Virus record (IMG/VR): IMGVR_UViG_3300043372_000062
Location: 1 to 28,002 of that record
Reading direction: 5' to 3' (one strand)
Source: a virus
Lineage: Duplodnaviria > Caudoviricetes
Length of the DNA stretch: 28,002 bases
Positions 9,837 to 27,674 of this stretch are shown piece by piece (positions within the stretch are counted from its first letter, which is position 1; each line of letters starts with the position of its first letter). The position numbers and the translations under genes are program-made. Below the pieces are notes generated by a model that was given only the letters and a program-made list of their open reading frames with translations, was not told the DNA's origin and made no database searches.

Positions 9837-9851
9837 AATATTTTTTTTTAT

Positions 9852-9891
9852 AAAAAAACCCAAAGCAGTTTTACTACTGGCTTTGGGTTTT
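9852..9891 (-). terminator. Intrinsic terminator between tail chaperone and tape measure gene
   Basis: AAAACCCAAAG-C-CAGT loop ACTG-CTTTGGGTTTT, ending in T7. Confidence 0.8.
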
Positions 9892-9897
9892 GTTTAA

Positions 9898-10071
9898 TTA
9901 TTTTTTATTTCTTAAATTATCTAATCTTAAAAGTTCATTGTACCAATACAAAATACCTTTAAAATCAAAATCATCACAATACATATTTTCAATCGTTTTT
10001 GGTGTCCAATGGTAATTATCAACAATACTCATTATCATATTGTCTAAACCATCAAAGCACCAATTACGAAA
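9898..10071 (-). CDS. Frameshift extension of tail assembly chaperone (P2 gpE'/lambda gpT analogue; not in ORF track)
   Basis: Open frame FRNWCFDGLDNMIMSIVDNYHWTPKTIENMYCDDFDFKGILYWYNELLRLDNLRNKK* contains the HW.P..I..M....W motif of gpE'-type extensions and overlaps the chaperone end at a T6 run. Confidence 0.75.
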   Translation of the reverse strand, partial: FRNWCFDGLDNMIMSIVDNYHWTPKTIENMYCDDFDFKGILYWYNELLRLDNLRNKK

Positions 10072-10489
10072 AAATTGAACCTACTTGCGAAATTACATCA
10101 TAATCATAAGCACTAAACTTATCTAACATTGCAACTGGCTGACTAATTATATAACTTGTCATTCTTAATTGCAAAGTAAAGATTTCATTTTGTGGATGTA
10201 ATCCTTTTGCCAAATCTGCCAAAGTCAAAGGTTTAATTCTTGTCTTAAATGTTACCTCCGATATTGAAACATCGCCCTTGTCATTTTTAATAGGACTTGA
10301 TAATTTAAATACAGGTAAACCTTCTGAATCAAAACTTAAAAAACCATCCATAATAGCATCTAATACATCAGGATAACCCTTTTCTAAATCATCATTGGTA
10401 GCAGGTACTCTAACGTGCTTTTTTACATATTTGTTTACTAAAGTACCTAATTCCGCAATTGCAACTTCCTTTTCAATTACTGTTTTCAT
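10064..10489 (-). CDS. Tail assembly chaperone
   Basis: Between tube and tape measure; FKL..PI...ISEVTF, LDK....DY..I ending; T6 slippery run near stop. Confidence 0.85.
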   Translation of the reverse strand: MKTVIEKEVAIAELGTLVNKYVKKHVRVPATNDDLEKGYPDVLDAIMDGFLSFDSEGLPVFKLSSPIKNDKGDVSISEVTFKTRIKPLTLADLAKGLHPQNEIFTLQLRMTSYIISQPVAMLDKFSAYDYDVISQVGSIFS

Positions 10490-10511
10490 TTTTCCTTTTC
10501 TTTATTAATTA

Positions 10512-10919
10512 TTAAATTGTTTCTAAAAATCCTGCTCCTGCTACTTTCAAAGTCATTACAGCAGTATTTGAATCCGATTGAATATCTCCAACAGGACTGC
10601 CTTTTCCTTTCAAAATAGCACCAGAAATGTGTGAAATAGTCCAAATTCCCTCAACAGGAGAACCTGACATTAAATTCAAACTATCTTCTTCGTAACCACT
10701 AACCAAATCAACTGCAATAGGACAATCAAACATCCATCTTGTATTGTTAATTTGTCTAATGTTTTGACCATTTGAAGTCAATTGACTTTGATCGTCATTG
10801 GTTCTTCTACCACCTTTATCAAGGTTTCCACTTTCGTTTGCTTTTGGAGAGTAACGATATGTATTACCTAAATGGTTACAAGTAATATCTAATATATCTC
10901 CACCTAAAAATACTGCCAT
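10512..10919 (-). CDS. Tail tube protein
   Basis: 135 aa beta-rich protein immediately after sheath. Confidence 0.85.
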   Translation of the reverse strand: MAVFLGGDILDITCNHLGNTYRYSPKANESGNLDKGGRRTNDDQSQLTSNGQNIRQINNTRWMFDCPIAVDLVSGYEEDSLNLMSGSPVEGIWTISHISGAILKGKGSPVGDIQSDSNTAVMTLKVAGAGFLETI

Positions 10920-10937
10920 AACTTATATCTTTTAAAA

Positions 10938-12458
10938 TTAAAATCCTGCTTTAACTGTTGTACTCTCAATTCTTGCAATTCCAGTAGTTTTGTAGTCAAA
11001 AGCAGTTTCAAATCTGTTTGGATTTGTGTTGCTAATTTGAACTTGTAAACTGCTTTTAGAAAATGCTGCATCTTTTAATAAAGCCTTTTGAGCTAAATTA
11101 TCAAACATTTCATAAACAACCGATTTCCAATCCATAGGTTTAACACAACCATCTACATCAACTAATTGTGTATCTGAAATTAATGTTTTATCTCGCAAAT
11201 ACAATTTCTCTAAAGTAATGTAAGTATCTTTTACGTTAAAATGAATGTTCAACGTTCTTGGATAAGCATATAATAATGGTGTTTCTCCTTCTGGATGATA
11301 TGTAGTTACCAAATCTTGTACTTTGTAAGTACCATTTTCAAGTATTACAGTTGAACAACCTTTTTTTACCAAGTAATCTCTGTTGTTGTAATCGCTCATA
11401 TCTCCAATTACTCCATCAACTGGAACTGGCATATCAGGGTAACTTAAATTATTTACGTCTAAATGTGGTGTATTTTGAAAAGTAACTGCTACTAAAGCTG
11501 CTACGTTTGCACTAGCTTCAAACTTAAATCCATCAGAATTTGGTGCAACACAAATTACGTTTGTAACTTGGTCTATTCTGTCAGCATCATCAGTAATATC
11601 AGATAAATCAAATCTATTTTCATCTGTTTCTCCAAAATAAGCACAAAATGGTTTAAATACTAATCCTGAATAACGACCTGTTGGATTTGTGTCATTTGGA
11701 ACTCCATTAAATTGTTCTAAAACATCTAATTGTGCAGTTCCATAAGGATTAAGTACAATAGTGTACCAATCATCTCCAAATTGAGCTAAAGCACCAGATA
11801 TATCTACTGAACCTGAACCATAAGATTCATCCGTTTGACTGTAAGATAAACCTGCTGTTTCTGTTCCTGTATCAACTGTTATTTTTAATTGTGCGCTAGT
11901 TGTACCTGCCCATTTAGATTCAAAAGTTACAACTCCTGCTGTTCTTGATGCTGTTGCAGGTGCGCCTAAAACTGCGTTTATTGCATTACGCATTTTAGTT
12001 GCAATATCAGTAGGTTCATCTCCTACTACTACATCGTAAGAATAAGGCTTAAAGTCTAAATCGTAACGACCATTAACAACTAATCTGTGAGTAGTGTTTT
12101 TTGTCGCTGTACCTGTTACAGTAATTTCAATACTTGTTGCAGTTGCTCCACCTGAACTAATTTGTGGAAAAACTATTGTTGGAATACCTCCAACTCCATC
12201 AGATCCTTTTGGTCTTAAAATACACATTTGTCTGTGTATTGGAGAACCATAACCATATAATAATCCTGCTTCATCTGAACTTGTAACTTCTCTTTTTGTA
12301 GTAGTTAAACCCATTTGATTTGCAGTATTAGCTTCTCCAAGTACCGCTATAATTTGAGGTAAATTTGGCGTTTCCTTGCTAAAGAAACCTTTTTTAATGT
12401 TGTAACCGCTTACTCTTGAAATTCTTTCTGAACCAACGGCAGTTGATATTGTTCCCAT
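10938..12458 (-). CDS. Contractile tail sheath protein (Mu gpL-like)
   Basis: A..LYG.GS, F.SKW.G, L...G.ST, LVTTY, NPNR motifs; 506 aa. Confidence 0.93.
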   Translation of the reverse strand: MGTISTAVGSERISRVSGYNIKKGFFSKETPNLPQIIAVLGEANTANQMGLTTTKREVTSSDEAGLLYGYGSPIHRQMCILRPKGSDGVGGIPTIVFPQISSGGATATSIEITVTGTATKNTTHRLVVNGRYDLDFKPYSYDVVVGDEPTDIATKMRNAINAVLGAPATASRTAGVVTFESKWAGTTSAQLKITVDTGTETAGLSYSQTDESYGSGSVDISGALAQFGDDWYTIVLNPYGTAQLDVLEQFNGVPNDTNPTGRYSGLVFKPFCAYFGETDENRFDLSDITDDADRIDQVTNVICVAPNSDGFKFEASANVAALVAVTFQNTPHLDVNNLSYPDMPVPVDGVIGDMSDYNNRDYLVKKGCSTVILENGTYKVQDLVTTYHPEGETPLLYAYPRTLNIHFNVKDTYITLEKLYLRDKTLISDTQLVDVDGCVKPMDWKSVVYEMFDNLAQKALLKDAAFSKSSLQVQISNTNPNRFETAFDYKTTGIARIESTTVKAGF

Positions 12459-12461
12459 ATT

Positions 12462-13079
12462 TTAATTATTAAAAATTAATTTTACTCCTTTTGATGTATT
12501 TTCGTAATTGATTTTAGTATTGTTTCCTTGTAAAGCAACTCCTTCCCACAATGCTTGATTTTCTTGAACTCCAACTATAAAAATTGTTCTAGCAAATCTA
12601 ATGTAAGAAGCATCGTAATTTGAGTGATTTCCAAAGTTTGAGTAATCTGTATCTACCATTATTCTTTTAATGTATTTCGTACCAATTAATCCTGGAGGAA
12701 ACAATAAAGTAGGCATTTTACCTGAACTTAAAATATATCTGATTAATCCTAAATATCTGTAAAGTTTTGTTTTTGAAACAATACTTGGAAGTGTAGTATC
12801 TTGACCATATCCCGAACAAAATAAATCAATAAAATACATACAATTACCTCTTACATCTCTTTGAGTATAACCTTCAAAATCATCTTCTTTAAAAGCTACT
12901 GTAATTCCTACATCTTCTTCTTTTGAAAATGGTTCAATGCGCTCTAAAAAAACTTCTACATTTTCTTCAAAACCTTGAATCTGTATTTGGTTTTCAATTT
13001 CTTCTGCTAAAATTTCTGCAATTCTATTCGTAACTAAACCAAAGCCTTGTAATGGTATTGTTTCTGTTAATATTGCCAT
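12462..13079 (-). CDS. Tail terminator / tail completion protein
   Basis: Position directly before sheath; size and alpha/beta pattern. Confidence 0.6.
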   Translation of the reverse strand: MAILTETIPLQGFGLVTNRIAEILAEEIENQIQIQGFEENVEVFLERIEPFSKEEDVGITVAFKEDDFEGYTQRDVRGNCMYFIDLFCSGYGQDTTLPSIVSKTKLYRYLGLIRYILSSGKMPTLLFPPGLIGTKYIKRIMVDTDYSNFGNHSNYDASYIRFARTIFIVGVQENQALWEGVALQGNNTKINYENTSKGVKLIFNN

Positions 13080-13081
13080 AA

Positions 13082-13471
13082 TTAAATCGGTTTATAATCT
13101 CCTAACCAAATTGTAATAAGTCCTAAATTCTCGTCTGGTACATTCTCTCTAATGATGTAATTCTTTATAGTTCCTGTACTGTCTGCAAAATTTACTTTGT
13201 GATACTTCAAATCAACTTCTTCAATTCCTTTCTTTGATGTTCTTACAGGATAACCTTGTGATGTTAATGCTAATTCATCTATCGTACAATGTACGTTTTT
13301 AGTATTTACTTGGTTTCCATCTGAATCAAAAGAACCTGCTACTTTTACCGCCCATCCTTGAATGTTTGCTGTCTTTGTACCATCTGGAGTTATAATTTCT
13401 AGTGAGATATTATAACCTCCAGAATTGACAAATTTTTTAGCATCTCTTTTAACTAAATCAAAAAAATTCAT
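13082..13471 (-). CDS. Head closure / head-tail joining protein (lambda FII-like)
   Basis: Position after capsid; C-terminal Y.I.E..PD..LG.I.I.L motif. Confidence 0.65.
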   Translation of the reverse strand: MNFFDLVKRDAKKFVNSGGYNISLEIITPDGTKTANIQGWAVKVAGSFDSDGNQVNTKNVHCTIDELALTSQGYPVRTSKKGIEEVDLKYHKVNFADSTGTIKNYIIRENVPDENLGLITIWLGDYKPI

Positions 13472-13476
13472 TTAGA

Positions 13477-13728
13477 TTATTTTTGAGTTTTTGGCTTTTT
13501 TGCTACTACAACTTTTTCTTCTACAACTTCAATATTTGCAGATTCAGTTTCAGCTTTAGTTTCAACTTTAGTTTCAGTTGTAGGCTCTACTACTAATTCA
13601 ATAAAACCAGCATCAACTAATCCTTTTACATCTGATGTTAATTGACTTTCATCAACAACCTCGTTGCACTTGCCAACGAGATTGTTTTTTAATGAATGTG
13701 CTATAACTAATATTTTATACTTTGCCAT
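13477..13728 (-). CDS. Small capsid-associated protein (lambda FI-like position)
   Basis: 83 aa after capsid gene; LV.AGFIE motif then low-complexity E/T/K tail. Confidence 0.5.
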   Translation of the reverse strand: MAKYKILVIAHSLKNNLVGKCNEVVDESQLTSDVKGLVDAGFIELVVEPTTETKVETKAETESANIEVVEEKVVVAKKPKTQK

Positions 13729-13745
13729 GATTTCAGCTTTTTAAA

Positions 13746-14837
13746 TTATGCTAAAACTTGCATTGTGTAAATCTTATCAATCGTAAATGGAACTACCAAT
13801 GGTGCAGAAGTTAATTCGATTGTGCTTGACATAGTTTTTTCATCACTATATGGTCTAATCAAATAATTTGCTTCTACGATTCCAGGTATTCTAGTTGTTT
13901 TACCTGCAATTGAAACTTCATTCATTGTTGGTAAACCACCAAAAATAGTTTTTCCTTGAAAATCATCTGGCATCATTACAACCAAATTTTCAGCTAAATA
14001 ATACTGTGTAGCACCATTAGCATCAGTATATTTTTCGTTGTAAGTCCAAAGGTTTACATTGAAATCTCCTGCTGCAACCATACCATGATATGCAAAACCT
14101 GAAACTCCTTCAAATTGTGGCATATTAATATTGATACGTTGAATTTGTTGGATAACATTTGCACCTTGCTCTTTTACTTGTGTAGTAGCTAATAACGCTT
14201 CCAAAGCAGCAGAACGCATTACAACGTTTACAGAAGATCCACCTGAATTACCAACATTTCTCAAAAAGTCTAAACCTTTACGAATATCAGTTAATGGTGT
14301 AGCAGTAGCAGATACTGACCAATAATCTCCAGCAGTATCAACATTTACCATTGAAGTAGCTTTACGCTTGAAATCAATGTTATCTCCGTTTACCAATGTT
14401 ACAATACCTGTTTGCAAAACATCAGCTTGTTGTTTACGGATTGCACGAATAATCATGTTACGATTTTTCTCAACACCTTTAAAAGCATTGGTAGCAATGA
14501 TTCTGTTTACTTGTGCATTTTCTAAACCTACTCCTAAAGAAATGTTATTCATGTAAACATTATCTCTATTGAAATCATAATCCAATTTAAAATAAGGTGG
14601 AATATATTTCTTTTCTGTAACTTTTGAACTTTTTGTTTTGTTTCCTTCGGTAAATCTAACAACATCAACTGCTATTAAATCATTATCTCTTTGAACTTCA
14701 ACATCTACTTCGTAAGTAGGTGTAGTTTCTTCTGGAAACCAAGCAGCGAATCCTGTTCTTACAGGTATCATTTCTTCAAATTTACCAACAATCTTTTTGG
14801 TTAGTAAATTACTGTGTTCTTGAATTGAAATTGCCAT
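13746..14837 (-). CDS. Major capsid protein (lambda gpE family)
   Basis: 363 aa; FP...T....V..EV.R....IA..V, PPYFK, L.TG.V, WS, S.PL.VP motifs of Phage_cap_E. Confidence 0.93.
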   Translation of the reverse strand: MAISIQEHSNLLTKKIVGKFEEMIPVRTGFAAWFPEETTPTYEVDVEVQRDNDLIAVDVVRFTEGNKTKSSKVTEKKYIPPYFKLDYDFNRDNVYMNNISLGVGLENAQVNRIIATNAFKGVEKNRNMIIRAIRKQQADVLQTGIVTLVNGDNIDFKRKATSMVNVDTAGDYWSVSATATPLTDIRKGLDFLRNVGNSGGSSVNVVMRSAALEALLATTQVKEQGANVIQQIQRININMPQFEGVSGFAYHGMVAAGDFNVNLWTYNEKYTDANGATQYYLAENLVVMMPDDFQGKTIFGGLPTMNEVSIAGKTTRIPGIVEANYLIRPYSDEKTMSSTIELTSAPLVVPFTIDKIYTMQVLA

Positions 14838-14839
14838 AA

Positions 14840-15607
14840 TTAATTATCGAATTTAGAAAGCTCGGTTACGTTGTTTAAAACGAATCCTAAAGCGGTTAAT
14901 ACATCTTTTAATGCTTTTGAACCTACAATGGTATCAAGGGTAACTCCTGTTGGTAAAATTAGTAATGAAGCATCAATATCTCCATTTAATGCGTAATTAG
15001 CAGTTAATGAAGCTGCATCAGCCATTAAATTTTCTCCTTCAATTTTTAAAATACCAATAACGTTTGCTAATGTAGCAGAAGTAGCAGGACTGAAACCTTC
15101 ATCAACACCACTTGTACCACCTACAATTGTAAATGTTGGAGCAGTACCTGTTCCTGTTGCTGATAAGTTTGTTTTGTTTCCAACTGTTGAAGCTGTAAAA
15201 ACTACTTCATCAAAATCTAATGTTTGAGCTGAACCAGTTGAGTAATTAGCTAAAGCACCAGAATAAGTACCTGTTGCTGTTCCAGCACCTGTTGTAGCAC
15301 CAACAGCTAAATTTGCAAAAGCAGTAGCCAATTGTTGAGCAGTTGTAGCAGCAGTTGAAGTGTAAGTTAAACCTGCAATAATCATAGTTTGACCTGTTGT
15401 CAATGCTACAAATTTAGCTGTTGCAGTTTCAAATGTACCTGAATTTCTTACTACTAAAATACCATCTTTAGCTAAAATAGATTCTCCAATGTTGTTTATA
15501 AAAACACCATTTCCAAAACGATTTCCGTAAGTAAAAACTTGTTGTTGTTGAATATCAACCGTTGATTGATTTCTAGTTGCATTTCTTTGAGTTGCGTATA
15601 TTCCCAT
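14840..15607 (-). CDS. Head decoration protein (lambda gpD position) with inserted Thr/Ala/Gly-rich domain
   Basis: Between protease and capsid; G.LVVR...P.....VIGIL...G.ID...L.LP core split by a ~110-aa insert. Confidence 0.75.
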   Translation of the reverse strand: MGIYATQRNATRNQSTVDIQQQQVFTYGNRFGNGVFINNIGESILAKDGILVVRNSGTFETATAKFVALTTGQTMIIAGLTYTSTAATTAQQLATAFANLAVGATTGAGTATGTYSGALANYSTGSAQTLDFDEVVFTASTVGNKTNLSATGTGTAPTFTIVGGTSGVDEGFSPATSATLANVIGILKIEGENLMADAASLTANYALNGDIDASLLILPTGVTLDTIVGSKALKDVLTALGFVLNNVTELSKFDN

Positions 15608-15619
15608 CTTTTAAATTAT

Positions 15620-15952
15620 TTAAAGTTTAAAATTAAAAGCAGATTCAATTTCTTTATCATGCTCACTTTTTTCATTCAATTCAGTAGGAGTTCCTTCTGT
15701 TACAATAGCAGGTGCATTATCAGATTTTAAATCTTCTAATTTTCCTTTTTGTGCCATCTTAACTAGGAAACTATGTGATTGAGTTTGTGTAATCTCTAAA
15801 CCACTAGCTATTCCTTCTGATACTGCTTTCGGATCTGCTTCCGAATAAGCCATCCAAGAACTTACTCGCTCTTGTTCCAATTTAACTCCTTCGCTTACTA
15901 TCTCTTGGTAAGCATCTGGAAATTGGCTTTTAAATTCTGATTTGTTCATCAT
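15620..15952 (-). CDS. Putative nested in-frame scaffolding protein (internal start MMNKSEFK)
   Basis: Internal ATGATG preceded by A/T-rich AATATTAATTCAAATTTAAAA resembling the start regions of other genes here; analogous to lambda Nu3 within C. Confidence 0.6.
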   Translation of the reverse strand: MMNKSEFKSQFPDAYQEIVSEGVKLEQERVSSWMAYSEADPKAVSEGIASGLEITQTQSHSFLVKMAQKGKLEDLKSDNAPAIVTEGTPTELNEKSEHDKEIESAFNFKL

Positions 15953-16873
15953 TTTTAAATTTGAATTAATATTTGTTGTTGTTGCTGTTCTAGTTTGTAA
16001 TAAAATGTTTTTTATAACTTCTGATTTTGTAGATATACCATCTATAAATTTACCTACTGAATCCTTTGCAAATTCATCGTGTCCATCGCTAAAATCAGTT
16101 CCTTTGAGTATTGGTCTATTGTTTTCAATCAAACTCAAAAATCTTTCATTAACAGGATTAAGTAAATCATTTACAATTAATGTGTAATTATCTTTATTTA
16201 ATGCTTGTTCAAAACCTTCGTTTTTCTTAACTGATTTTGTTGCGTATAATCTGATGTGCTTTTCTCCTTCTCCATCTGTTGTATTTGCTTCTCTACCTTC
16301 AAACTGAATCATAGTTCCACAACTTCCAACTGTACTCATTTCACTTTCAGCATAAATCTTTTCGCAAGAACTTAAAATACCATAAGCTGCACTAGCAGCC
16401 ATTCCACCTTTTTTAATCAATCCGAATACTGGTTTAGTTTTTCTAATTTCAGAAATAGCATCTGTAATTATTTCTACTGCCATTGTCGAACCACCACCTG
16501 AATTAGCATATATTAAAAACCCTTTTATGTTTTCATTTTTGCTTAACTCTAACATACTTTCAGATAGTTCAGTCATTCCACAACTTGACATTCCACCACC
16601 TACTGTTATTGCACCATTAAGATTTATTACTGCAATACCTTGTATATCTTCATTTGTCGGTTCGTAATCTTCACATTCTTCGTAATCTTCATAATCATCA
16701 CAATCATCACTTTTTGTATTTAAAACTGAAATAGAATTATATTTCACTTTTGGCAACTCTAAATTTTGACCATTTTTTGAATTTGAAATAATTTGAAGCA
16801 TTGCTGGTAATGTTTTGGAATCTACACTCCAAACACCCATTCCATAAACCTCTTTTGCTAATTCAAAATTCAT
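15620..16873 (-). CDS. Prohead protease (peptidase S49) fused to scaffold (lambda C/Nu3-like)
   Basis: IAVINLNGAI, NSGGG, KPV, MAASAAY, VGSCG, G.FIDGI S49 motifs; C-terminal E.ERV helical scaffold domain. Confidence 0.92.
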   Translation of the reverse strand: MNFELAKEVYGMGVWSVDSKTLPAMLQIISNSKNGQNLELPKVKYNSISVLNTKSDDCDDYEDYEECEDYEPTNEDIQGIAVINLNGAITVGGGMSSCGMTELSESMLELSKNENIKGFLIYANSGGGSTMAVEIITDAISEIRKTKPVFGLIKKGGMAASAAYGILSSCEKIYAESEMSTVGSCGTMIQFEGREANTTDGEGEKHIRLYATKSVKKNEGFEQALNKDNYTLIVNDLLNPVNERFLSLIENNRPILKGTDFSDGHDEFAKDSVGKFIDGISTKSEVIKNILLQTRTATTTNINSNLKMMNKSEFKSQFPDAYQEIVSEGVKLEQERVSSWMAYSEADPKAVSEGIASGLEITQTQSHSFLVKMAQKGKLEDLKSDNAPAIVTEGTPTELNEKSEHDKEIESAFNFKL

Positions 16874-16896
16874 ATTTTCTTTATTAATTATAAAGC

Positions 16897-16930
16897 AAAA
16901 AACAGCTCGTAAAAATTAATCTACGGCTGT
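16897..16930 (-). terminator. Terminator-like hairpin in the leader of the head operon
   Basis: ACAGCCGTAG loop TTACG-A-GCTGT followed by T5. Confidence 0.55.
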
Positions 16931-16983
16931 ATTATTTATTTTTATTAATTCTTTGTTTCACAACAATAAATTATTTGTTAGGA

Positions 16984-16991
16984 CAAATGTA
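16984..16991 (-). promoter_or_regulatory. -7 promoter box TACATTTG for head/tail operon
   Basis: + strand caaatgta in the intergenic region 110 nt upstream of the protease ATG. Confidence 0.7.
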
Positions 16992-17042
16992 TATAAATAA
17001 ATTAAATAAATGATTTTTTTTTAAAATATTTTTTTCTACAAT

Positions 17043-17074
17043 AAAAAAATCACACTAAATTAATAGTGTGATTT
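17043..17074 (-). terminator. Intrinsic terminator ending the early region / sRNA
   Basis: Perfect 11-bp stem AAATCACACTA / TAGTGTGATTT, 6-nt loop, ending in T7. Confidence 0.8.
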
Positions 17075-17108
17075 CCCAAAATTAAAACAATCTATGAAAA
17101 AAAATTAC
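17043..17108 (-). ncRNA. Candidate ~65-nt small RNA
   Basis: TATATTTG box at 17120-17113, then TTTTTTTTCATAGATTGTTTTAATTTT, then the terminator. Confidence 0.5.
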
Positions 17109-17112
17109 CTTA

Positions 17113-17120
17113 CAAATATA
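17113..17120 (-). promoter_or_regulatory. -7 promoter box TATATTTG
   Basis: + strand caaatata; a TTTG lies 22 nt upstream (17146-17143), slightly longer than usual spacing. Confidence 0.55.
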
Positions 17121-17133
17121 TTTAAAAATCTAA

Positions 17134-17307
17134 TTACTCTCTCAAAATTGATAAAATCTTTTTTATAAGATTAGAATTTTCTTTTGTAAGCAAATCAATT
17201 TTTAAATTGTACTGTGATAAAAAGTTTCTTTGTTGCAAGAATAAAATAAATATTACGAATCCAAGTATTAAATTTAAAACAACAGAAACTATAATTATAA
17301 AAATCAT
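17134..17307 (-). CDS. Small membrane protein, 57 aa (not in ORF track)
   Basis: Manual translation MIFIIIVSVVLNLILGFVIFILFLQQRNFLSQYNLKIDLLTKENSNLIKKILSILRE*; A-rich upstream region; fills the gap in the operon. Confidence 0.65.
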   Translation of the reverse strand: MIFIIIVSVVLNLILGFVIFILFLQQRNFLSQYNLKIDLLTKENSNLIKKILSILRE

Positions 17308-17321
17308 ATTAGTATTTTTTA

Positions 17322-17573
17322 TTAGTCAATGTAATCTAAAGCAGTTTGTATTTCATTTGCTTTTTGAGAAAAGTTGCAGGACTGCTCCAAACTTTCATTT
17401 TTTTTCTGTTTTAAATAATCGCTTAAACTTCTTCTAGCATTATTTAAAATCTGTACCATCTCCAATTCAGATAAATTATCATCAGAATTTACTATTGTGC
17501 CAATAAGTAACTCGGTGTTTCCAATTACTATTTCTTCTCTAGTTTTCTTTTTTAGTAAAGTAAATTTTATCAT
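17322..17573 (-). CDS. Hypothetical protein
   Basis: ATGA overlap with upstream gene, co-oriented. Confidence 0.65.
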   Translation of the reverse strand: MIKFTLLKKKTREEIVIGNTELLIGTIVNSDDNLSELEMVQILNNARRSLSDYLKQKKNESLEQSCNFSQKANEIQTALDYID

Positions 17574-17941
17574 TTTTCGTTTTCTTTTAATATTTTGACT
17601 AAAATTCCATCTAATGCTTTTGGATTTATTTCATTAGCTACAATACATTTATTTATTAAGTTTTTATCTAATAAATGATTTCTCATTACAAGCAAGTTAT
17701 TAGCTACTACAATATCATAAAAAGCTGTTGTTCCTTCTGGTGTTGCTTCAAACAAATCATTATACTTTTTGGTTTCCTTTTCTAAAATACCATAAATACT
17801 TTTTAAGTTTGATTTCAATTTTAGGTTTTTAATTTGCTTTGATGAATAATTTAAATCATCAATCAATTCAATTGCTCTTTGTAATACTACTCTTAACTCA
17901 ATCTGATTGAATCCAAGTTCTTGTTCTTTGCTTAAATTCAT
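17570..17941 (-). CDS. Hypothetical protein
   Basis: ATGA overlaps on both sides. Confidence 0.75.
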   Translation of the reverse strand: MNLSKEQELGFNQIELRVVLQRAIELIDDLNYSSKQIKNLKLKSNLKSIYGILEKETKKYNDLFEATPEGTTAFYDIVVANNLLVMRNHLLDKNLINKCIVANEINPKALDGILVKILKENEK

Positions 17942-18306
17942 AGTTCCAATTTTAAGTTAGATTTATTACTAGCGTTTTGTGCTTGTCTTTGTTTAAATTC
18001 TCTTGAAATCCATGTGCGAATTAAACAACCTTTACTTTCTGGAGTAACAGAATTTATTGCCCCTTGTCTAAAAATTAATTCTTCCTTTGCTAAATTACTA
18101 AATACAGATCCAAAAATATTTACCTGTTGTGGTAACTGGTGTTTCTCCAAATATGCTTTTTTAAAATCATTTGCAGAAAACACTTTGAATTGTAATTTTA
18201 CCCATTCTACTGCAAAATTAAAACATTCATTATAATCATGCTTATTAGCCATGCGAACTCTATGTAGAGCTTCGTCTTTTGTTTCTTGGTAGTTTTCCAT
18301 AATCAA
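17938..18306 (-). CDS. Hypothetical protein, possible winged-helix DNA-binding fold
   Basis: FSANDF...P...N.FGSVF..LAK..LI...G....W.S pattern; translationally coupled. Confidence 0.6.
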   Translation of the reverse strand: MIMENYQETKDEALHRVRMANKHDYNECFNFAVEWVKLQFKVFSANDFKKAYLEKHQLPQQVNIFGSVFSNLAKEELIFRQGAINSVTPESKGCLIRTWISREFKQRQAQNASNKSNLKLEL

Positions 18307-18671
18307 GTTTTTAAATATTCAAATCCAACTAACTTGTAATCTCTTTCAAGAATCTTAATAACATTCTTAAAGTTTAATGCAGAAATGTATAAACAGTTTC
18401 TTTTGATTATAACATTACCTTTTGTTTTAAATGTTGGTCTGCCTAATAATAATTTGTCTTTTTGCTTTGTAGCTTCTTCAAAAGAAATTTCTTTTTTTAA
18501 ATTTTCATATTTAGCTTTACAAATTGTTTTTGATTCTCTACAACACTCAAATAAAGTGTGGTTTTTTTGTGGTAACATTTTACCTTCCAAAACAGTTGTT
18601 TCTTTTATTTCAGCTTGTTTTACAATCTCAATCTTATCTTCTGATACCTTTTCTAATTCTTGTTTTCTCAT
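18303..18671 (-). CDS. Hypothetical protein
   Basis: Coupled ORF in operon; no family recognised. Confidence 0.7.
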   Translation of the reverse strand: MRKQELEKVSEDKIEIVKQAEIKETTVLEGKMLPQKNHTLFECCRESKTICKAKYENLKKEISFEEATKQKDKLLLGRPTFKTKGNVIIKRNCLYISALNFKNVIKILERDYKLVGFEYLKT

Positions 18672-18673
18672 GT

Positions 18674-19414
18674 TTATTGATTTAAATATTTAATACCATC
18701 AGTTACTTTCTTTGTAAGCAAAACCATATCCTTAACTGGAACTTCAAATCTGAATTTAACCATACTTGGAAAATCTGAATGTTTTGGAATAAATGGTAAA
18801 TCGTACAAATCTTTTTCATACAGAAATCTATACTTCCAGGCATCATCTTTTAAATGCTTTTCAATGTAGTCCGTATTCTCTACCATATCTCGCATTTCAA
18901 GTAGGTTTTGTTCCGTAGGCATAAATGCAATAGCTTCTCCAATATTAACGCCATGAATGATGCAATTAGAAACTATTTGCCAATACTCCGAAGCATATTC
19001 CTTTTTAAAAACTTCTACATTTTGTTGTAACAAAACTTTTACATAGTCAAAATGATTTGACATTTGATAACACTTTAATTCAGAAATTCCAATCTTTACT
19101 CCATTATTTAAAATATTGAAATCTTGTGATCCACTCCATTGAATGTGTTTTGGATGTATTGTTGTTTTGTCAATTACTAATTCATATTCATTTCCTAACT
19201 GCCAATGAACATAAGTTTCCCAAGCCTTACCCCAAATCATATCCTGTTTGTAAATTGGTAAATCTAAACCTCTACCAAATTCAAGTTCTTTTTTCTTATT
19301 GTTAAGATAGGTTATTGCTCCTGCTCCAAATCCCATTTCTTGCCTTCCCTCAACCAACAGTAAACTAACTTTACTGCTGGTTATTCTTGCTACTCTATTT
19401 GCACTATTGTTCAT
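18674..19414 (-). CDS. YqaJ / lambda-exonuclease family protein
   Basis: RITSS, M.WG..WE, SGSQD, ELKC, YWQ motifs of the PD-(D/E)xK exonuclease; adjacent to annealase. Confidence 0.85.
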   Translation of the reverse strand: MNNSANRVARITSSKVSLLLVEGRQEMGFGAGAITYLNNKKKELEFGRGLDLPIYKQDMIWGKAWETYVHWQLGNEYELVIDKTTIHPKHIQWSGSQDFNILNNGVKIGISELKCYQMSNHFDYVKVLLQQNVEVFKKEYASEYWQIVSNCIIHGVNIGEAIAFMPTEQNLLEMRDMVENTDYIEKHLKDDAWKYRFLYEKDLYDLPFIPKHSDFPSMVKFRFEVPVKDMVLLTKKVTDGIKYLNQ

Positions 19415-20138
19415 TCTTTAGTTTGTTAAGTTGGTAAATTACTTTGTCGTAGTTTTTAATATCCTTTTCTTTAATTACTTTTTCAATAAAATCTAAATCA
19501 GATTCTTTTGTAATTAATGATTTCTTTTCTTCAAACAATTCAATAATCTTTTCTTGCTTTGAAACATCTTCATAGTCCGTATCAATAGTTGTAAAAACAT
19601 CTTTTACTTCTTCTACTGACTGCATTCCATTTAATATATCTGGAGCATATAATCTACCAAAAAAACTTGCTGCACGATATTGAAACATTAATTCAGGCAT
19701 TGTTTTCCATTTTGAACCTGGTTTAGATAACCAACCTTCTGACTTGACCATTAACCAAGTTACTAATGTTCCTGTAATTCTGTTACCTTCAAAATCATCA
19801 GTATATGCTCTACAACCATAATCATCAGATTTTGAATCTGCACCTATAAATTCAAATCTTAATGGTTTAAATCTACCACATGAATTTAAAGCAGCTATTA
19901 TAAACGAACTTCTCCAACTTGGCTTTCCTTGAATAATATCAAGGTTTTGCATAACCATAAATGGACTTACTCCTATTCGTGTTGCCATCTCTAAAGCAAT
20001 CATTGTATTTGGAATATTACCTTTGTATGCTTGTGGAACTAAATCTGAACTGCACAATCCTTTTGCAATTCTTTGACCATCTTCAAATGATGCTATCGTG
20101 CTAAATATTGAAGCATCTGCTTTTACTATGTTTGACAT
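19404..20138 (-). CDS. RecT/Red-beta-like single-strand annealing protein
   Basis: S.LVP.AY.G......A.E.A.R.G..P..VMQN...I.GKP...W..MP..M..YRA..FF.R..APD.L.G....EE; paired with exonuclease. Confidence 0.85.
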   Translation of the reverse strand: MSNIVKADASIFSTIASFEDGQRIAKGLCSSDLVPQAYKGNIPNTMIALEMATRIGVSPFMVMQNLDIIQGKPSWRSSFIIAALNSCGRFKPLRFEFIGADSKSDDYGCRAYTDDFEGNRITGTLVTWLMVKSEGWLSKPGSKWKTMPELMFQYRAASFFGRLYAPDILNGMQSVEEVKDVFTTIDTDYEDVSKQEKIIELFEEKKSLITKESDLDFIEKVIKEKDIKNYDKVIYQLNKLKNEQ

Positions 20139-20144
20139 TTTTTT

Positions 20145-20348
20145 TTAATTTAAGTTATTATTACGTTTTTCTAATTTTTGTTCAATCCACTCTCGCATCT
20201 CAATCTTTTCTTCTTCTGTTAATCCTTCTGTATCTGTTTCTTTTGGATATTCAATTTTAAAAAGAAATGGATATGCTAACAAAATACAAATTAAAGCTCC
20301 AACACCAAGTCCTATAAAAAAATCTAGTATATTCATATTACAAATCAT
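20145..20348 (-). CDS. Small single-TM protein
   Basis: Hydrophobic N-terminal helix, charged C-terminus. Confidence 0.65.
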   Translation of the reverse strand: MICNMNILDFFIGLGVGALICILLAYPFLFKIEYPKETDTEGLTEEEKIEMREWIEQKLEKRNNNLN

Positions 20349-21612
20349 TTAGTTGAATTAATAAAACAGATTTAAAATGTTTGATTTGAAAATTTAGTTC
20401 CCCAATGAATTGTTTTATTTCATCGTTTTTTGTTTCTAAATTTATATCAGAAAAATAAACCTCTAAACTTTCTGCAATTACTTTCTTATCATTAGCTAAT
20501 CGTTTTACTCTAGCAGCATTTTCTTTCTTTAAACGAATAGCATCTTTTTTAGATAATTCCAAATCAATTGCTTTTTGCTTTTCAGCTTTTTCTTTAAGCA
20601 ATAATTCAAGTTCTTGTGCTTCTTTTAATTGTTGTTTAACAATTTCTATATGCTCTTTCGCTTCTTTAATTTGATTTTTTGCATTTAATAATATAGATTC
20701 AAATTCAGTTATTGAAGCATTAAATACTAATTGTTCATTTATATTTTCTATATCATAAATAACAAAACTAAAACCATTATGCGGAGTAAGCACAACCCCA
20801 ATTTCATCAAGTCTATTTTTACGAATTTCAAACTGTTCGCCTTTTTGTTGCATCTCTTTAAATTCTCTTTCTCTTTGTTCTGCATCCAATCTGTCTTGAA
20901 GTTCTTTTGATTTACGTTCAATCTCTAAATTTATTTCTTTTAAACGCTCATTTTCCAAACGCTGTTGCTCTTTTTCTTGAACCTCGCTACATTTGTTATC
21001 CCAATAACTTTGAACTCTAATTCGTGCTTGTTCAAACATTATTTCATACTCCTCGTAATCAAATTCATCATTGACAAAACCATCTAACATTGTCTTATGT
21101 AATTCTACATTTCCAATGTTAGTTTCTTGAATGATTTTATAAGAATCAGATTCAAAATCAGAAATCTTTTTTTCAATGGTTTCAATACGATTTTGTTCTG
21201 CAACTCTTTCAGCTTCCTTTTCAATTTCCTTACGCTTTTCCTCAAACTTAATTAAAGCATCAACTGAATCTTCCAAACTAACATTTAAGTCTATTAATTC
21301 CTTTAAATTAGCCTTGTCTTTTTTCTTGTAACTCTCAAATACACTTACGTTATTTTTTTCTATTTTCTGAATTAAATAACGAGGTTCTCGAAGCTCTGCA
21401 CGAATTGAAACCAACTCTTTTAATTCACTCGCATCAAAGTTTTTGTTTTCTGATAATTCAGAAACTCTAATTGAATGCTTTAAATTTAAAGCTACTAAAT
21501 TTTTCTTTGCCATATCAAAATCTGACAACAACATCAAACTCTTATCCGATGCACCCATAAATTCCTTTATTGAAACTTCTTTAGTTCCAAATACCTCTAA
21601 TTGCTTTTCCAT
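20338..21612 (-). CDS. Long coiled-coil protein (DUF1351-like context, upstream of recombinase)
   Basis: 424 aa E/K-rich heptad pattern; family guess is weak. Confidence 0.6.
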   Translation of the reverse strand: MEKQLEVFGTKEVSIKEFMGASDKSLMLLSDFDMAKKNLVALNLKHSIRVSELSENKNFDASELKELVSIRAELREPRYLIQKIEKNNVSVFESYKKKDKANLKELIDLNVSLEDSVDALIKFEEKRKEIEKEAERVAEQNRIETIEKKISDFESDSYKIIQETNIGNVELHKTMLDGFVNDEFDYEEYEIMFEQARIRVQSYWDNKCSEVQEKEQQRLENERLKEINLEIERKSKELQDRLDAEQREREFKEMQQKGEQFEIRKNRLDEIGVVLTPHNGFSFVIYDIENINEQLVFNASITEFESILLNAKNQIKEAKEHIEIVKQQLKEAQELELLLKEKAEKQKAIDLELSKKDAIRLKKENAARVKRLANDKKVIAESLEVYFSDINLETKNDEIKQFIGELNFQIKHFKSVLLIQLNDL

Positions 21613-21615
21613 TTG

Positions 21616-21870
21616 TTATTTTGTTCTCCAACTTGTTACGTTACTAATACAAAGATTTGAACCTACTTGTGCATTAATCCAATCTCCAGGTGTTAAGATA
21701 AATTTCTTTTCTTTTCCACTACATTGATTACGAATTACAACAGAATAATCCTGTACGTTATCACTAATGATTAATCCGCAATTACAATCTTTTGGTGCTG
21801 TTACTACATCTTCTGGCTTTGAACATGATGCTAATAAAACTACCGATAACATAAATACTACTTTTTTCAT
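21616..21870 (-). CDS. Small Cys-rich lipoprotein
   Basis: MKK + hydrophobic core + LASC lipobox (Cys16); four further Cys. Confidence 0.8.
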   Translation of the reverse strand: MKKVVFMLSVVLLASCSKPEDVVTAPKDCNCGLIISDNVQDYSVVIRNQCSGKEKKFILTPGDWINAQVGSNLCISNVTSWRTK

Positions 21871-21904
21871 TTTAAATTGATTTTAATTATTAATTGTTTT
21901 TTGT

Positions 21905-22234
21905 TTAATACGTTTTTTCTAAATTGCTTAATGGTTTATCGTAATCAGGTTCTTTAGGATTTGTTTTAAAATCTTCTCTAGGAACAATCTCTTTTACTTT
22001 TGGAAATCCATCTAATCCTGGAAAATTTAATCTCTCAAAATTTGTTGGACTTTGTTGCAATCCTATTGACTTTTCTTCTACTCTAAAAATCCTGCTATAA
22101 ACTCGAACCAAATACTTTACTTTCTCAACAGCTTCTGCTATGCTTTGTGCTTCAATTTCTATCTCCCTATCCACACATTCATCATTTCTTTCAGCATAAT
22201 AAGAAACAATGTAAGTTCTACTAATCATGCTCAA
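21905..22234 (-). CDS. Hypothetical protein
   Basis: Co-oriented ORF overlapping HTH gene; EIEA.SI.EA..K motif seen in small phage proteins. Confidence 0.65.
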   Translation of the reverse strand: MSMISRTYIVSYYAERNDECVDREIEIEAQSIAEAVEKVKYLVRVYSRIFRVEEKSIGLQQSPTNFERLNFPGLDGFPKVKEIVPREDFKTNPKEPDYDKPLSNLEKTY

Positions 22235-22529
22235 TTACTTCTTTTACAACATCAAAAAAATCTAAATTGTAGTCCTTTAAAAAGTTGTAAAGCAATCCTA
22301 CAACAGCAGGTGCTTGTTTACCCATTTTTGTAATTGACATACGATTAAATCCGTTTTGTTCTGCCAATGCACTTAATGTTAGTTTCACACCTTTCTCTTG
22401 CTCTAATTTAATTAGAATTGTTTTAAAGTCTAATAGAACTTTTTTCTTCTCACAAATTTCTGATTTTGTGTTCACTACTTTTTTTGGTAGTTTTTTCATA
22501 GGTCGCAAAACCTCTTTTTCTTCACTCAT
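22221..22529 (-). CDS. HTH transcriptional regulator (Cro/XRE-like)
   Basis: LTLSALAEQNGFNRMSITKM helix-turn-helix; first gene after a consensus promoter. Confidence 0.7.
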   Translation of the reverse strand: MSEEKEVLRPMKKLPKKVVNTKSEICEKKKVLLDFKTILIKLEQEKGVKLTLSALAEQNGFNRMSITKMGKQAPAVVGLLYNFLKDYNLDFFDVVKEVIEHD

Positions 22530-22556
22530 AATATTATCATTTGATTATTAATTCTG

Positions 22557-22586
22557 CAAATATATACTTTTATATTTCATTAGCAA
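22557..22586 (-). promoter_or_regulatory. Full Flavobacterium-type promoter TTG-N19-TATATTTG
   Basis: TTG at 22586-22584, 19-nt spacer, TATATTTG at 22564-22557. Confidence 0.8.
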
Positions 22587-22618
22587 GTTTTTTTAATATT
22601 ATTATAAATAAAAACATT

Positions 22619-23143
22619 TTATAATTGTCTTGATACATATTTTATATACTCTAAATGTTTATTTTTTGTGTCTAATAAAACTCCATCTAATGAAAAGTAC
22701 ATAAAAGTGTTTTTATCATATTTTAAAAACCTATGAAGTTTTGCATGAAAAGAAGGTGTTAGCTCAATAATATCTTTAGCATATATCTTTTGATAACTCC
22801 AATGATGTAAATGATTTCCTTTTATAAAAGGTTTTAATCTACTACACTTAATATAAGCATTATATTTTTCAGGATAATTAATTCTATATTTTTGCATATC
22901 TCTTTTTTTTATTTCTGGAGATTTTTTATGCTTTTCTAAATAGTTTAATCTATGGTATTTATCTCTATGCCTAATTTTTTCATTTTGTATCCAATCTTTA
23001 TCCTTTCCTAATTCTTTTTGCCTTAAATTAGAATCTTTTTTAGTACAAACCTTGCATTTATTTAAATGACCATCAGCCATTTGTTTATGCACATAAAAAT
23101 CACTTAATGGTTTTTCTAAACCACATTTAAAACATTTTTTCAT
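22619..23143 (-). CDS. Free-standing HNH endonuclease with N-terminal Zn finger
   Basis: KKCFKC..EKPL.DFY.....DG..NKCKVC; C-terminal HLHHWSY......I.L....H.KLH. Confidence 0.8.
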
Positions 23144-23153
23144 AATAAAACAA

Positions 23154-23236
23154 GAATCCTCTAGTGAGTACCGCCAAGTAAACTCAAAAGAGGATCTTAA
23201 TTAAACTTTAATCTTGGCGGATTTGCCACAAAGATA
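23154..23236 (-). promoter_or_regulatory. Promoter (TATCTTTG) plus structured 5' leader of HNH gene
   Basis: -7 box 23236-23229; CCGCCAAG (23220-23213) complementary to CTTGGCGG (23178-23171) in the loop of hairpin 23195-23156. Confidence 0.7.
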
Positions 23237-23261
23237 ATGTTTTTTTTTATTAGTTTTACTT

Positions 23262-23600
23262 TTACGGGATAACTAAAAACCCTAAATTAAAAGGTAAATC
23301 ATCTGTTTCCTCCATCTCTTTAATTTCTTCTGGAGTTGCTTCGTGAACTTTACTTACTGCTTCCCAAATTCTACCATTTCCTAAATAAGTGCTTAAAACA
23401 GTTTCTCCTGCTTTCTTTGCTTCTACTTGTTCCTTTGATAAACAAACTCTAACTGAAAAGTCATTTCCGTATTTATCTTCTTGATCATTATCCCAAGTTT
23501 CTAACATTAAATACTTTTTTCCGTTCTCATGGATTAAGATTCTTTCCTTTGGAATATCTGTTAAGCAAATACTCATTGTTCTCCTTTTACCTGTTTTCAT
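23262..23600 (-). CDS. Single-stranded DNA-binding protein-like
   Basis: SI.LT.IPK..I....NGKKYL......D.YGN...YLGNG core and acidic DDLPF tip, here extended by 8 aa. Confidence 0.7.
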   Translation of the reverse strand: MKTGKRRTMSICLTDIPKERILIHENGKKYLMLETWDNDQEDKYGNDFSVRVCLSKEQVEAKKAGETVLSTYLGNGRIWEAVSKVHEATPEEIKEMEETDDLPFNLGFLVIP

Positions 23601-23691
23601 TTTCTTGTTTTTTAAATTCTGTTAGTAATACTCTCTTTGGATTTTTTTCAGAAGCTAACCATTGCTTCAAACAGTCTTGTGAATGTTTCAT
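23587..23691 (-). CDS. Possible 34-aa protein (not in ORF track)
   Basis: MKHSQDCLKQWLASEKNPKRVLLTEFKKQENENR*; A-rich leader, fills the gap and overlaps the SSB start. Confidence 0.45.
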   Translation of the reverse strand: MKHSQDCLKQWLASEKNPKRVLLTEFKKQENENR

Positions 23692-23725
23692 TTTTAATTG
23701 TTTTAAGTTAATTTTAATTTATTTA

Positions 23726-24859
23726 TTATTTCATAAATGAAAATATATGTTCTATTATTGGCAAAGTCCAACCATCACCGAGTAATGATCCTGCCTTTGC
23801 TTTTGTAAGTATTGAAGTGTAACCATCGGGGAATCCTTGCAAACGTTCCATTTCAATTTGGTTAACTGTTCTAACAATTCCATCTTTATATGAATAAAGA
23901 TTATTATTGCTTTCCATCAAACAAGGGCTTTTACCTTTTGTTACTCTACCTCTGCGAGTTGTTGAAGTTGGAAAAGCTAAATCTAAACAATCATTTTCTG
24001 TAATTACATCATAACCTTTTAAAGTATTTGTTTTGCAACGAAATTCGTTGTTTTCTTCATAGATTAAAGTTAACATTCCTGTTGTTTCGTTTCTGTGTTT
24101 TAAATATTGTTGACTTCCATCTCTACCACTACCAGTGTTTAAACAAGTATGTTTATCAGTATCAACATAAATCATATTAATAAAATCCTTTGACGCTCTT
24201 TTTTTTATACTATCTTGACTCTTACAAGCTCTGCTTTCACTTTCTAATAATGCCAAAGCCTTTACCCTTTCAATTGTTCCTCCAGTAATAATATCCTTAA
24301 ACATTATTCCCCTATCTTTTGGTTGAGGTATATCCGTAACAATATCAAACATCGTTTCTTTTGTTTTTATATTGCTCCAATAATATCGGTCACGAAGTTG
24401 AGCAGTTACTAAACTACTATTAATTCGTACCGGATAAACTCCCAAAGCTCTGCTCATTATTCCAACATCTAACTTTGACGCACTTCCAACATTCTCTTGT
24501 AAAAATAAAACCTTTGGATTAAGTGATTTTATATAGTCCAACATTTTGACAAATACAAAAAATAGACTTGACTTTTTACCGTTTATGCCTGCTCTTTTAC
24601 CAGCTGCGCTTAAATCTTGACAAGGAGATCCACTTAAAATCAAATCAATACTTCCCCAATCTATATCCCATTCCTTCCATTTTGTCACGTCTCCAACTTG
24701 GATAGTATCGGGGAAATGATGTTGTGTTAATTCGATTGCATAAGGTTTTATTTCGCTTGAATAGTATTTATCAACTTTTATACCTACATTCTCTAAAGCT
24801 TGTCGCCCTGTATTCATTCCATTGAATAGTGAAAGTACATTAATTTTTTTTGCCTCCAT
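23726..24859 (-). CDS. DNA (cytosine-5)-methyltransferase
   Basis: VLSLFNG (I), GSPCQ (IV), ENV (VI), Q.R.R (VIII), ERLQGFP (IX), LGDGW (X). Confidence 0.93.
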   Translation of the reverse strand: MEAKKINVLSLFNGMNTGRQALENVGIKVDKYYSSEIKPYAIELTQHHFPDTIQVGDVTKWKEWDIDWGSIDLILSGSPCQDLSAAGKRAGINGKKSSLFFVFVKMLDYIKSLNPKVLFLQENVGSASKLDVGIMSRALGVYPVRINSSLVTAQLRDRYYWSNIKTKETMFDIVTDIPQPKDRGIMFKDIITGGTIERVKALALLESESRACKSQDSIKKRASKDFINMIYVDTDKHTCLNTGSGRDGSQQYLKHRNETTGMLTLIYEENNEFRCKTNTLKGYDVITENDCLDLAFPTSTTRRGRVTKGKSPCLMESNNNLYSYKDGIVRTVNQIEMERLQGFPDGYTSILTKAKAGSLLGDGWTLPIIEHIFSFMK

Positions 24860-25292
24860 GTATTTTACTTAATTGATATTGTTTTGATAATTCTGGATTA
24901 CTTTCTAATTCTCCATTGTGAAATAAACAACAGGCTTTTAGAAATCTTTTATCTACTAATAATGAAATATTATTATCTCTCGCCCAATCATCATAAAACC
25001 CTTTTCTACCAGCAGTATGCTCTATGGTATTGGCTACATTTTTACAGCCATCAATAAAACATATAAACTTTGCTTCTGCTAAAACCTCTATTCTTACTTT
25101 TTCGTATATAGGAATTAATGCTTTTCTCTTATCCGAAACTTTAGGAATTTTGTAAAGTGATTTTAGTTTTAGATTTGGTTTTCTATTTTTATTCATACAA
25201 ACAGAACCGCAGTATTTCTGTAAGCTATTGTATTGCTTAAATTCATTACTGCAATTCTTATCTGCACAAACTTTTAGTTTAATATCAGCCAA
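24840..25292 (-). CDS. NinG/Rap-like Zn-finger HNH nuclease
   Basis: N-terminal C....C...F....SLQK.C...C as in NinG; C-terminal C....C...A.TIEH..GR...C...HN. Confidence 0.6.
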   Translation of the reverse strand: MADIKLKVCADKNCSNEFKQYNSLQKYCGSVCMNKNRKPNLKLKSLYKIPKVSDKRKALIPIYEKVRIEVLAEAKFICFIDGCKNVANTIEHTAGRKGFYDDWARDNNISLLVDKRFLKACCLFHNGELESNPELSKQYQLSKIHGGKKN

Positions 25293-25881
25293 CTTTTGAC
25301 ATCGTTACAACACCATTTAATCCGCTTTCAATTGGTTCACTTCCAAAAAGCTCACCGCCACGCTTTCCTTTGTAAATAAATGACCAAACCTCTTTTTCAA
25401 TTTCTGTAAAAGCACATTCTGCTAAATCTCCAATCATAATTACTTCTTCTACTGAATTAGTAATTTCTGAATCAAATCTTATTACAGGAGAAGTAATTGC
25501 AATAGTTCCTAAATCAGTTTGTAATGTTCCAGAAATTTTAATTCCTTTGCTTTCTTTTGCTCCAATAACTGTCAAACCACTTATTGTTACGTTTTCAATT
25601 TCTTCGTGCCAAAATGTAATTGTTTTTTTTAAAACTTGATCATTTTTACGATTGTGTTCTCTAGCAAAATCCCAACCTTGATTTAATCCTAAAGCATAAG
25701 CAAAAACTTCTTTTAAGCTATGTAAAGCATCATAATAATCCTCACTTGGTTTACTATCACTATCTACCGAATAAAGGTCGTTACTTTGGTTCAAATCAAA
25801 CCAATCAATCTCTAAACCTTTCTTTGCATTGAACTTTACTTTTTTTAGTTCAAAGTCCTTTAAATCTACTTTTTTGTTCAT
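25285..25881 (-). CDS. Hypothetical phage protein
   Basis: 198-aa coupled ORF; no function recognised. Confidence 0.75.
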   Translation of the reverse strand: MNKKVDLKDFELKKVKFNAKKGLEIDWFDLNQSNDLYSVDSDSKPSEDYYDALHSLKEVFAYALGLNQGWDFAREHNRKNDQVLKKTITFWHEEIENVTISGLTVIGAKESKGIKISGTLQTDLGTIAITSPVIRFDSEITNSVEEVIMIGDLAECAFTEIEKEVWSFIYKGKRGGELFGSEPIESGLNGVVTMSKVG

Positions 25882-25899
25882 TTTTAAAATATTTAATTG

Positions 25900-26208: not shown

Positions 26209-26236
26209 TCTTATTTATATTTAATTGGTTACTAAT

Positions 26237-26926: not shown

Positions 26927-26930
26927 AATT

Positions 26931-27673: not shown

Positions 27674-27674
27674 T

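Follow-up and report, generated by a model that had tools for sequence, protein, structure and literature searches.

In this study of 28,002 nt of a linear, 56% complete virus record (hereafter the window), we describe a small cassette on the minus strand, which also carries the genes, that is composed of a promoter-like -7 box, a short stretch mirroring a translation start and an intrinsic terminator. As judged from its sequence, the locus is very likely a real gene for a FopS-like small RNA that reads the generic start region of Bacteroidota genes, CUAUG-AAAAAA. That the cassette is an RNA gene at all is highly probable, and its product probably acts by pairing with start regions. For the full proposal, i.e., a trans-acting RNA of the FopS/GibS type of approximately 66 nt that pairs with leader-CUAUG-AAAAAA starts and blocks ribosome loading mostly on host mRNAs, we consider the chances to be about even; a smaller part of the pairing hypothesis falls to phage mRNAs. 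The initial annotation had already read the locus as a small RNA, and this is supported by the identity of its core with that of FopS and GibS, by a copy in phage FCL-2 and by the recurrence of its layout.

The phage and the setting of the locus

The head protease encoded in the window shares 52% identity with its counterpart in Flavobacterium phage FL-1 and 48% with the one in FCL-2, because of which the phage is regarded as Ficleduovirus-like; its host is presumably a Flavobacterium, and most of the runs that contain the region are labelled as freshwater or riverine metagenomes. The cassette is located between a gene for a 57-codon membrane protein and the late promoter of the head protease gene (Table 1). 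Both the 57-codon gene and the cassette are missing from the close relatives L161 and L162. Homologues of this gene are 91-93% identical. Among the changed codons that were listed, 10 of 13 and 14 of 20 are synonymous, and the gene is evidently under purifying selection. The 57-aa protein could be assigned to no family; it had no loci in the viral or metagenome contigs, and its Atlas matches were under 0.9.

Several further elements were observed in the surrounding DNA. In the late leader (window 16991-16890, minus strand), the promoter is followed by a small hairpin (16966-16953) with GUGA in its loop, after which a second hairpin with a U run precedes the protease start. Versions of the small hairpin with altered stems are found in L161-L164, L168, L174, FL-1 and FCL-2. 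The sequence suggests a terminator-gated late leader that would need antitermination, for which lambda PR'-tR' is offered as an analogy. In the relatives X3 and X5, dissimilar sequence of almost the same length (111 and 109 nt) takes the place of the segment 16902-17013, between flanks that stay similar. The head protease also contains an acidic repeat, DDCDDYEDYEECEDYE (window 16640-16720), which varies by insertions in relative X6. At 1174-1060 (minus strand), an intergenic unit upstream of ORF 894 consists of a -7 box, two hairpins and a U run, and a similar unit is found at FL-1 3691.

Structure of the cassette

Table 1. Features of the cassette and of its surroundings (window coordinates)
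Feature	Position	Strand	Remark
-7 box TATATTTG, Bacteroidota sigma-A type, predicted promoter	17113..17120	-	no well-spaced -33 element
Predicted small RNA, ~66 nt	17043..17108	-	single-stranded 5' part and terminator; start inferred from box spacing
Seed UUUUUUUUCAUAG	17092..17104	-	contains the 10-nt FopS/GibS core; mirrors CUAUG-AAA-AAA
U/G-rich, C-free tail	17078..17091	-	mirrors an A/C-rich leader; trait absent from the search pattern
Intrinsic terminator	17043..17077	-	also the sole terminator found downstream of the early/middle operon
Membrane-protein gene, 57 codons	17134..17307	-	directly upstream of the cassette
Late promoter and leader of the head protease gene	16874..16991	-	downstream context, outside the RNA
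Antisense ORF, 24 codons	17094..17168	+	judged incidental; no upstream promoter word

On the minus strand, the -7 box, the U-rich stretch and the 11-bp terminator that had been described initially were all found at the stated positions. In these phages, the exact word TATATTTG has a promoter-like distribution, with 22 of its 39 copies being non-coding in four phage genomes whose non-coding share is 5-9%, as are both copies in the window. A second box-like word just before the hairpin, TAATTTTG, is non-coding in only 5 of 32 copies. The -7 box is unchanged in the relatives X3 and X5 and apparently also in X11. The -33 element is weak, with a TTTG lying off-spacing 22 nt upstream and its G altered in X3 and X11. 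A start 4-5 nt past the -7 box, as in the rule for F. johnsoniae (PMC6847099; see also PMC9723704), yields the RNA ends that are listed in Table 1.

The stem of the terminator is formed by 11 Watson-Crick pairs (17074-17064 with 17057-17047), encloses a 6-nt loop, is followed by a U run and could be extended by three G.U pairs. Folding 101 nt of the region gave -18 kcal/mol (z -2.78), which was equalled by 2 of 200 shuffles. In the predicted fold, the U run and the CAU are unpaired with a probability of 0.7-0.9; a weak 6-bp helix competes, leaving the seed mostly open. A generic terminator scanner returned four matches in the window, the hairpin at 17074-17047 not being among them. A purpose-made scan returned five, including this hairpin, and because no other lies from there to the end of the window, the cassette terminator also ends the early/middle operon. 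The mirrored sequence had been called a typical Bacteroidota initiation region, of which a modest likeness stands; ranked among 210 phage starts, the mirror reaches the 28th percentile, its base at -3 is U instead of A, and its score is equalled by 7-17% of shuffles. The single RNA run considered (X24) had no contig across the cassette and says nothing either way.

The FCL-2 copy and the wider phage family

At the corresponding place, the cultured phage FCL-2 carries a cassette (NC_027125, 11814 to about 11910) of a box, the identical 12-nt word and a terminator, with different genes upstream; the distance from the CAT to the protease start is 226 nt compared to 228 nt in the window. A likeness of this degree was reached by 57 of 5000 shuffles for the 12-mer and by 55 of 3000 for the alignment, i.e., in approximately 1-2%. 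FCL-2 belongs to a near-clonal group of F. columnare phages with 78 records.

A family pattern that was built from the window and FCL-2 (the box, 8-24 nt, six U plus CAUAG) matched approximately 160 IMG/VR stretches, of which 120 were examined and 84 were distinct. A terminator lay within 65 nt in 25 of these 84 box-plus-seed matches compared to 13 of 181 seedless TATATTTG boxes with a similar span (p 3e-6) and 5 of 258 flanking windows. The 25 terminator-bearing members, which fall by eye into approximately 18 groups (FCL-2 being one), are mostly intergenic where flanks are available, and their tails are U/G-rich and C-poor relative to the other 59 (p about 3e-6 and 5e-7), a profile that the window tail fits. 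The seed is invariant across the family and its flanks are variable, although the shared seed is circular because the pattern was derived from the window locus and FCL-2; only the terminator, the tail and the intergenic setting are independent of it. A sequence model of 20 of the 25 members, leaving out FCL-2 and four near-duplicates, gave its highest score in 698,882 bases to the cassette of the window (17.4 bits, E 0.003), a result that is partly circular through the seed. The other carriers are presumably Bacteroidota phages, as indicated by the promoter word rather than by taxonomy. The special tie to the early/late boundary that had been proposed for the cassette was not upheld, the family members being placed at assorted operon ends.

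A 5' flank that seemed to mirror signal-peptide codons (MKKNYL in the window, MKKTLLL in FCL-2, MKKILLL in G011) was abandoned as the flank is not conserved in the 25-member set. Exact-core patterns produced unrelated matches only (29 loci; 120 loci with a terminator in 0/120; one Tenericutes genome-contig match), and a model search of 39 metagenome loci recovered almost only the antisense of the starts that had been used to fetch them. As separate observations, promoter-terminator cassettes without a gene were seen in L158 (FL-1) at 3183, 3268, 10360 and 10455, in G011 at 5356 and in L175 at 1426; several of these immediately follow the gene for the terminase large subunit, a position that seems to be a recurrent small-RNA slot. 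In L343, a family cassette has directly upstream of it a BTnc231-like match at 1535-1675 (minus strand; 35.1 bits, E 0.0014, below the cut-off) that contains hairpins with GUGA loops.

Relation to known small RNAs

Letter for letter, the 10-nt core of the seed equals positions 4-13 of the 70% consensus printed for FopS, and the same ten letters occur at the 5' ends of the GibS and FopS-10 transcription oligos (PMC11697453). The suggested resemblance to the anti-start small RNAs of Bacteroides is supported by this identity with the FopS/GibS 5' core and by the presence of the layout in FCL-2 and approximately 18 groups. Like FopS of Bacteroides thetaiotaomicron (RF04319), the window RNA has a length of about 70 nt, a single-stranded 5' part and a terminator (all predicted in the window) and the core near its 5' end. 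FopS has a canonical sigma-A type promoter; in the window, the -7 box is strong and the -33 element is off-spacing and not conserved. The two differ in the 3'-extended seed after the core, and the window tail departs from the consensus, although both are U/G-rich. FopS has multiple paralogues per genome, whereas in the window, from a 56% complete genome of a Flavobacterium-type phage, a single copy and no paralogue was found. The Rfam models of FopS and GibS had no match at E up to 10 in 16800-17400, and the best of 20 family-search loci scored 30.3 bits on the FopS model (1/20) against a cut-off of 56. By analogy, the window RNA likely works like FopS without being filed as a member.

FopS represses the translation of susC near its start codon and has predicted targets that are enriched in outer-membrane proteins; the same paper records a FopS sequence in one Caudovirales phage and the origin of FopS-14 from a 3'UTR (PMC11697453). 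GibS also represses by pairing at start codons (PMC7366714). It shares with the window RNA the 5' core and an unstructured 5' seed across start codons (predicted for the window) in a phylum without Shine-Dalgarno sequences, but it has a second seed, R2, and verified metabolic targets, whereas the window RNA has one seed and putative targets. Rfp18 of F. psychrophilum (PMC9723704), an expressed RNA, resembles the window RNA in its sequence, which contains an anti-AUGAAAA word and a stretch rich in U and G and ends in a hairpin; its predicted targets are metalloproteases and a secreted adhesin. Rfp18 differs, however, in being longer (97 nt) and more structured, its predicted pairing region is a stem-loop, and its deletion lowers the target mRNA, so that its mode may be activation (PMC9723704). 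Among phage RNAs, PreS, VpdS (PMC12197685) and svsR (PMC12803456) are described as trans-acting RNAs that alter host expression or limit other phages. They come from proteobacterial phages, PreS and VpdS are Hfq-bound, and the comparison with the window RNA is by description only. We found no description of such RNAs for Flavobacterium or Cellulophaga phages in the literature covered by the search, which lay outside most subscription journals, and a single FopS-bearing phage was mentioned in it.

Candidate targets

The same RNA and mechanism might be aimed at the phage's own early genes, in an early-to-late switch, or at genes of co-infecting phages, which we regard as unlikely. The partial matches to the starts at 21870, 23143, 23691, 27673 and 27893 that had been pointed out initially do exist, with energies of -14.0 to -8.5 kcal/mol against -33.6 kcal/mol for a perfect partner, but they do not exceed those of shuffled RNAs. 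Across the 42 window starts, the window RNA was matched by 40% (mean) and 59% (best) of 300 shuffles, and it was not above shuffles on its own starts (198/500) or on eight other phage sets. The best in-window start partner (-14.0 kcal/mol) is ORF 21870-21616 (minus strand) in the early operon, which is predicted to encode a lipoprotein of 84 aa (MKKVVF...LASC). The seed has just one further perfect 11-nt complement in the window, at 22501-22491 (minus strand; -15.1 kcal/mol), and this covers an in-frame internal ATG at codon 11 of the 102-aa ORF 22529. The initial proposal that early genes of this phage are targeted thus obtained no start above shuffles in the 56% complete genome, a degree of completeness because of which a target may be missing.

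In 12 carriers, their own genome ranked 5th to 17th of 17 sets, with 8/200 as the best own result, and this lack of an own-genome advantage points away from phage-private targets. Six near-complete carriers contain only 0-2 further exact 10-nt target words. Starts that pair with the seed are equally frequent in carriers (22/600) and non-carriers (13/346), and self-avoidance by the carriers, which the low ranks had suggested, was rejected on the same counts. In favour of phage targets, the best partner of the 58-nt FCL-2 RNA is the start of its own gp69 (-29.5 kcal/mol, 0/100 shuffles; 1/500 by alignment score), with gp70 being second; this signal, however, is lost when the 41-nt 5' part is used (74/200), and foreign genomes give it as well. 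In phiSM (L294, 3550-3640), the terminase gene is followed by a seedless promoter-terminator cassette that mirrors almost perfectly the leader of one of the phage's own genes, which starts at 45639 and is annotated as VirE (0/25 and 1/500 shuffles, no foreign match). By duplex energy, three of the four FL-1 cassettes had no target that exceeded shuffles; for the fourth, the signal disappeared when alignment scores were used. The gene starts of L304-L307, four relatives that reach past the window end, contained no strong partner. Four of the 29 exact-core loci, in which the start of a gene for a spanin-like lipoprotein contains a perfect complement of 18 nt, were rejected as cognate targets because their records share almost no DNA with window 9000-28002.

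As regards host targets, perfect 19-nt complements in metagenomes, which come from unrelated organisms and not from the host of this phage, lie at ORF starts in 18 of 54 distinct cases compared to 8 of 59 for ATGAAAAAA (p 0.015) and 691 of 27210 for any ATG. By eye, many of the genes concerned have signal-peptide-like N-termini, and a T9SS sorting domain was found in 4 of the 22 products scanned (18 starts and four borderline cases). The proposed preference for signal-peptide genes did not hold beyond base composition, as 166 of 300 shuffles matched it in the proxy set (148 neighbouring metagenomic genes from 15 hand-picked loci).

Alternative readings of the locus

It is rather improbable that the locus is an ordinary terminator of the early operon with an AT-rich 3' UTR, in which the box and the anti-ATG word arose by chance or as a by-product of a blocked promoter. 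Close relatives were compared across the region. In the Logan contigs X3 and X5, 17014-17140 is kept with one change each, and the 57-codon gene is much changed; this near-invariance is unspecific, as it includes the A/T tract below the terminator, and DNA elsewhere nearby shows few changes as well. The X11 variant differs at 30 of 239 positions, its first listed change being at 17130, and 17100-17129 seems to be unchanged given a second contig beginning at the same base. With divergence being patchy, the conservation in X3, X5 and X11 is suggestive only. Where protease identity is 66-75%, relatives have no cassette here but a terminator that differs in sequence, and the full seed cassette occurs in one of 46 related protease-upstream regions (that of FCL-2), three truncated loci having been excluded, with looser variants in L165/L166 and L180. 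In five close relatives, the seed had no match at up to two mismatches, and no phage homologue was retrieved when the region was searched by blastn, the FL-1 late leader being the most informative match. Within the clade, the cassette is, by its distribution, dispensable. In favour of an ordinary terminator are the terminator in relatives that lack the cassette, the unspecific near-invariance in X3 and X5, the modest start-likeness and the poorly spaced -33 element; against it are the four-fold enrichment of terminators behind box-plus-seed words over seedless boxes, the tail signature of the family, the syntenic FCL-2 copy and the identity with the FopS core.

A slightly less probable alternative is that the RNA mimics host FopS-like RNAs and serves mainly as a decoy for an RbpB-like RRM protein. 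RbpB binds the 5' part of FopS sequence-specifically (PMC11697453), and an invariant seed with variable flanks would fit a protein-binding word. Against this, the tail keeps the U/G-rich, C-poor composition that pairing with leaders would require, and the independent transcripts of F. psychrophilum contain no exact FopS-like RNA, the exact core occurring once, inside the 519-nt Rfp50.

That the plus-strand ORF is real and the minus-strand RNA is its cis-antisense repressor, as in a type I toxin-antitoxin system, is very improbable: the RNA would be a perfect complement of the ORF start, the peptide would be basic and hydrophobic and FCL-2 has a 19-codon counterpart, but no plus-strand TAnnTTTG lies between 15956 and 17804, there is no plus-strand terminator, the ORF has no PHROG match, and the antisense ORFs of the family (4-40 codons, median 10) share no peptide past MKK. 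The ORF as a conserved product, which the initial annotation had kept as its own alternative, is unlikely because the antisense frames are not conserved.

Proposed mechanism

In the start-pairing reading that we prefer, the host polymerase would start near 17108 and stop at the hairpin; alternatively, the RNA may be cut from the 3' end of the early transcript that shares the terminator, as for FopS-14. The seed, predicted to be exposed as a single strand, would nucleate on AUG-AAA-AAA, and the tail would extend the duplex into the A/C-rich leader. Such leaders matter for initiation in this phylum. By analogy with FopS and GibS, translation would fall through pairing. Host mRNAs, e.g., those of Met-Lys-Lys envelope or secreted proteins, appear by the same analogy to be the likeliest targets, and their role as main targets is the weakest step. 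It is favoured mainly by elimination and by the FopS precedent, the invariant seed not being tuned to the carriers' own genes. The benefit to the phage, such as the shut-down of a receptor, is a guess.

Implications

FopS and GibS are among the few mechanistically studied small RNAs of Bacteroidota and are described as conserved within the Bacteroidaceae, with one phage copy. The occurrence of their core, borne by phages, in approximately 18 contig groups beyond the window and in the FCL-2 group suggests that phages reuse a phylum-wide masking of start codons that lack a Shine-Dalgarno sequence. Because FCL-2 and its host are in culture, a reprogramming of the host envelope is directly testable. 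We tentatively propose, as a possibility more doubtful than the RNA itself, that Bacteroidota phages of many lineages carry a generic anti-start RNA with the FopS/GibS seed of their hosts, which would lower Met-Lys-Lys envelope or secreted proteins. If true, this would be an RNA-only device for host takeover or superinfection exclusion, possibly hitting phage receptors.
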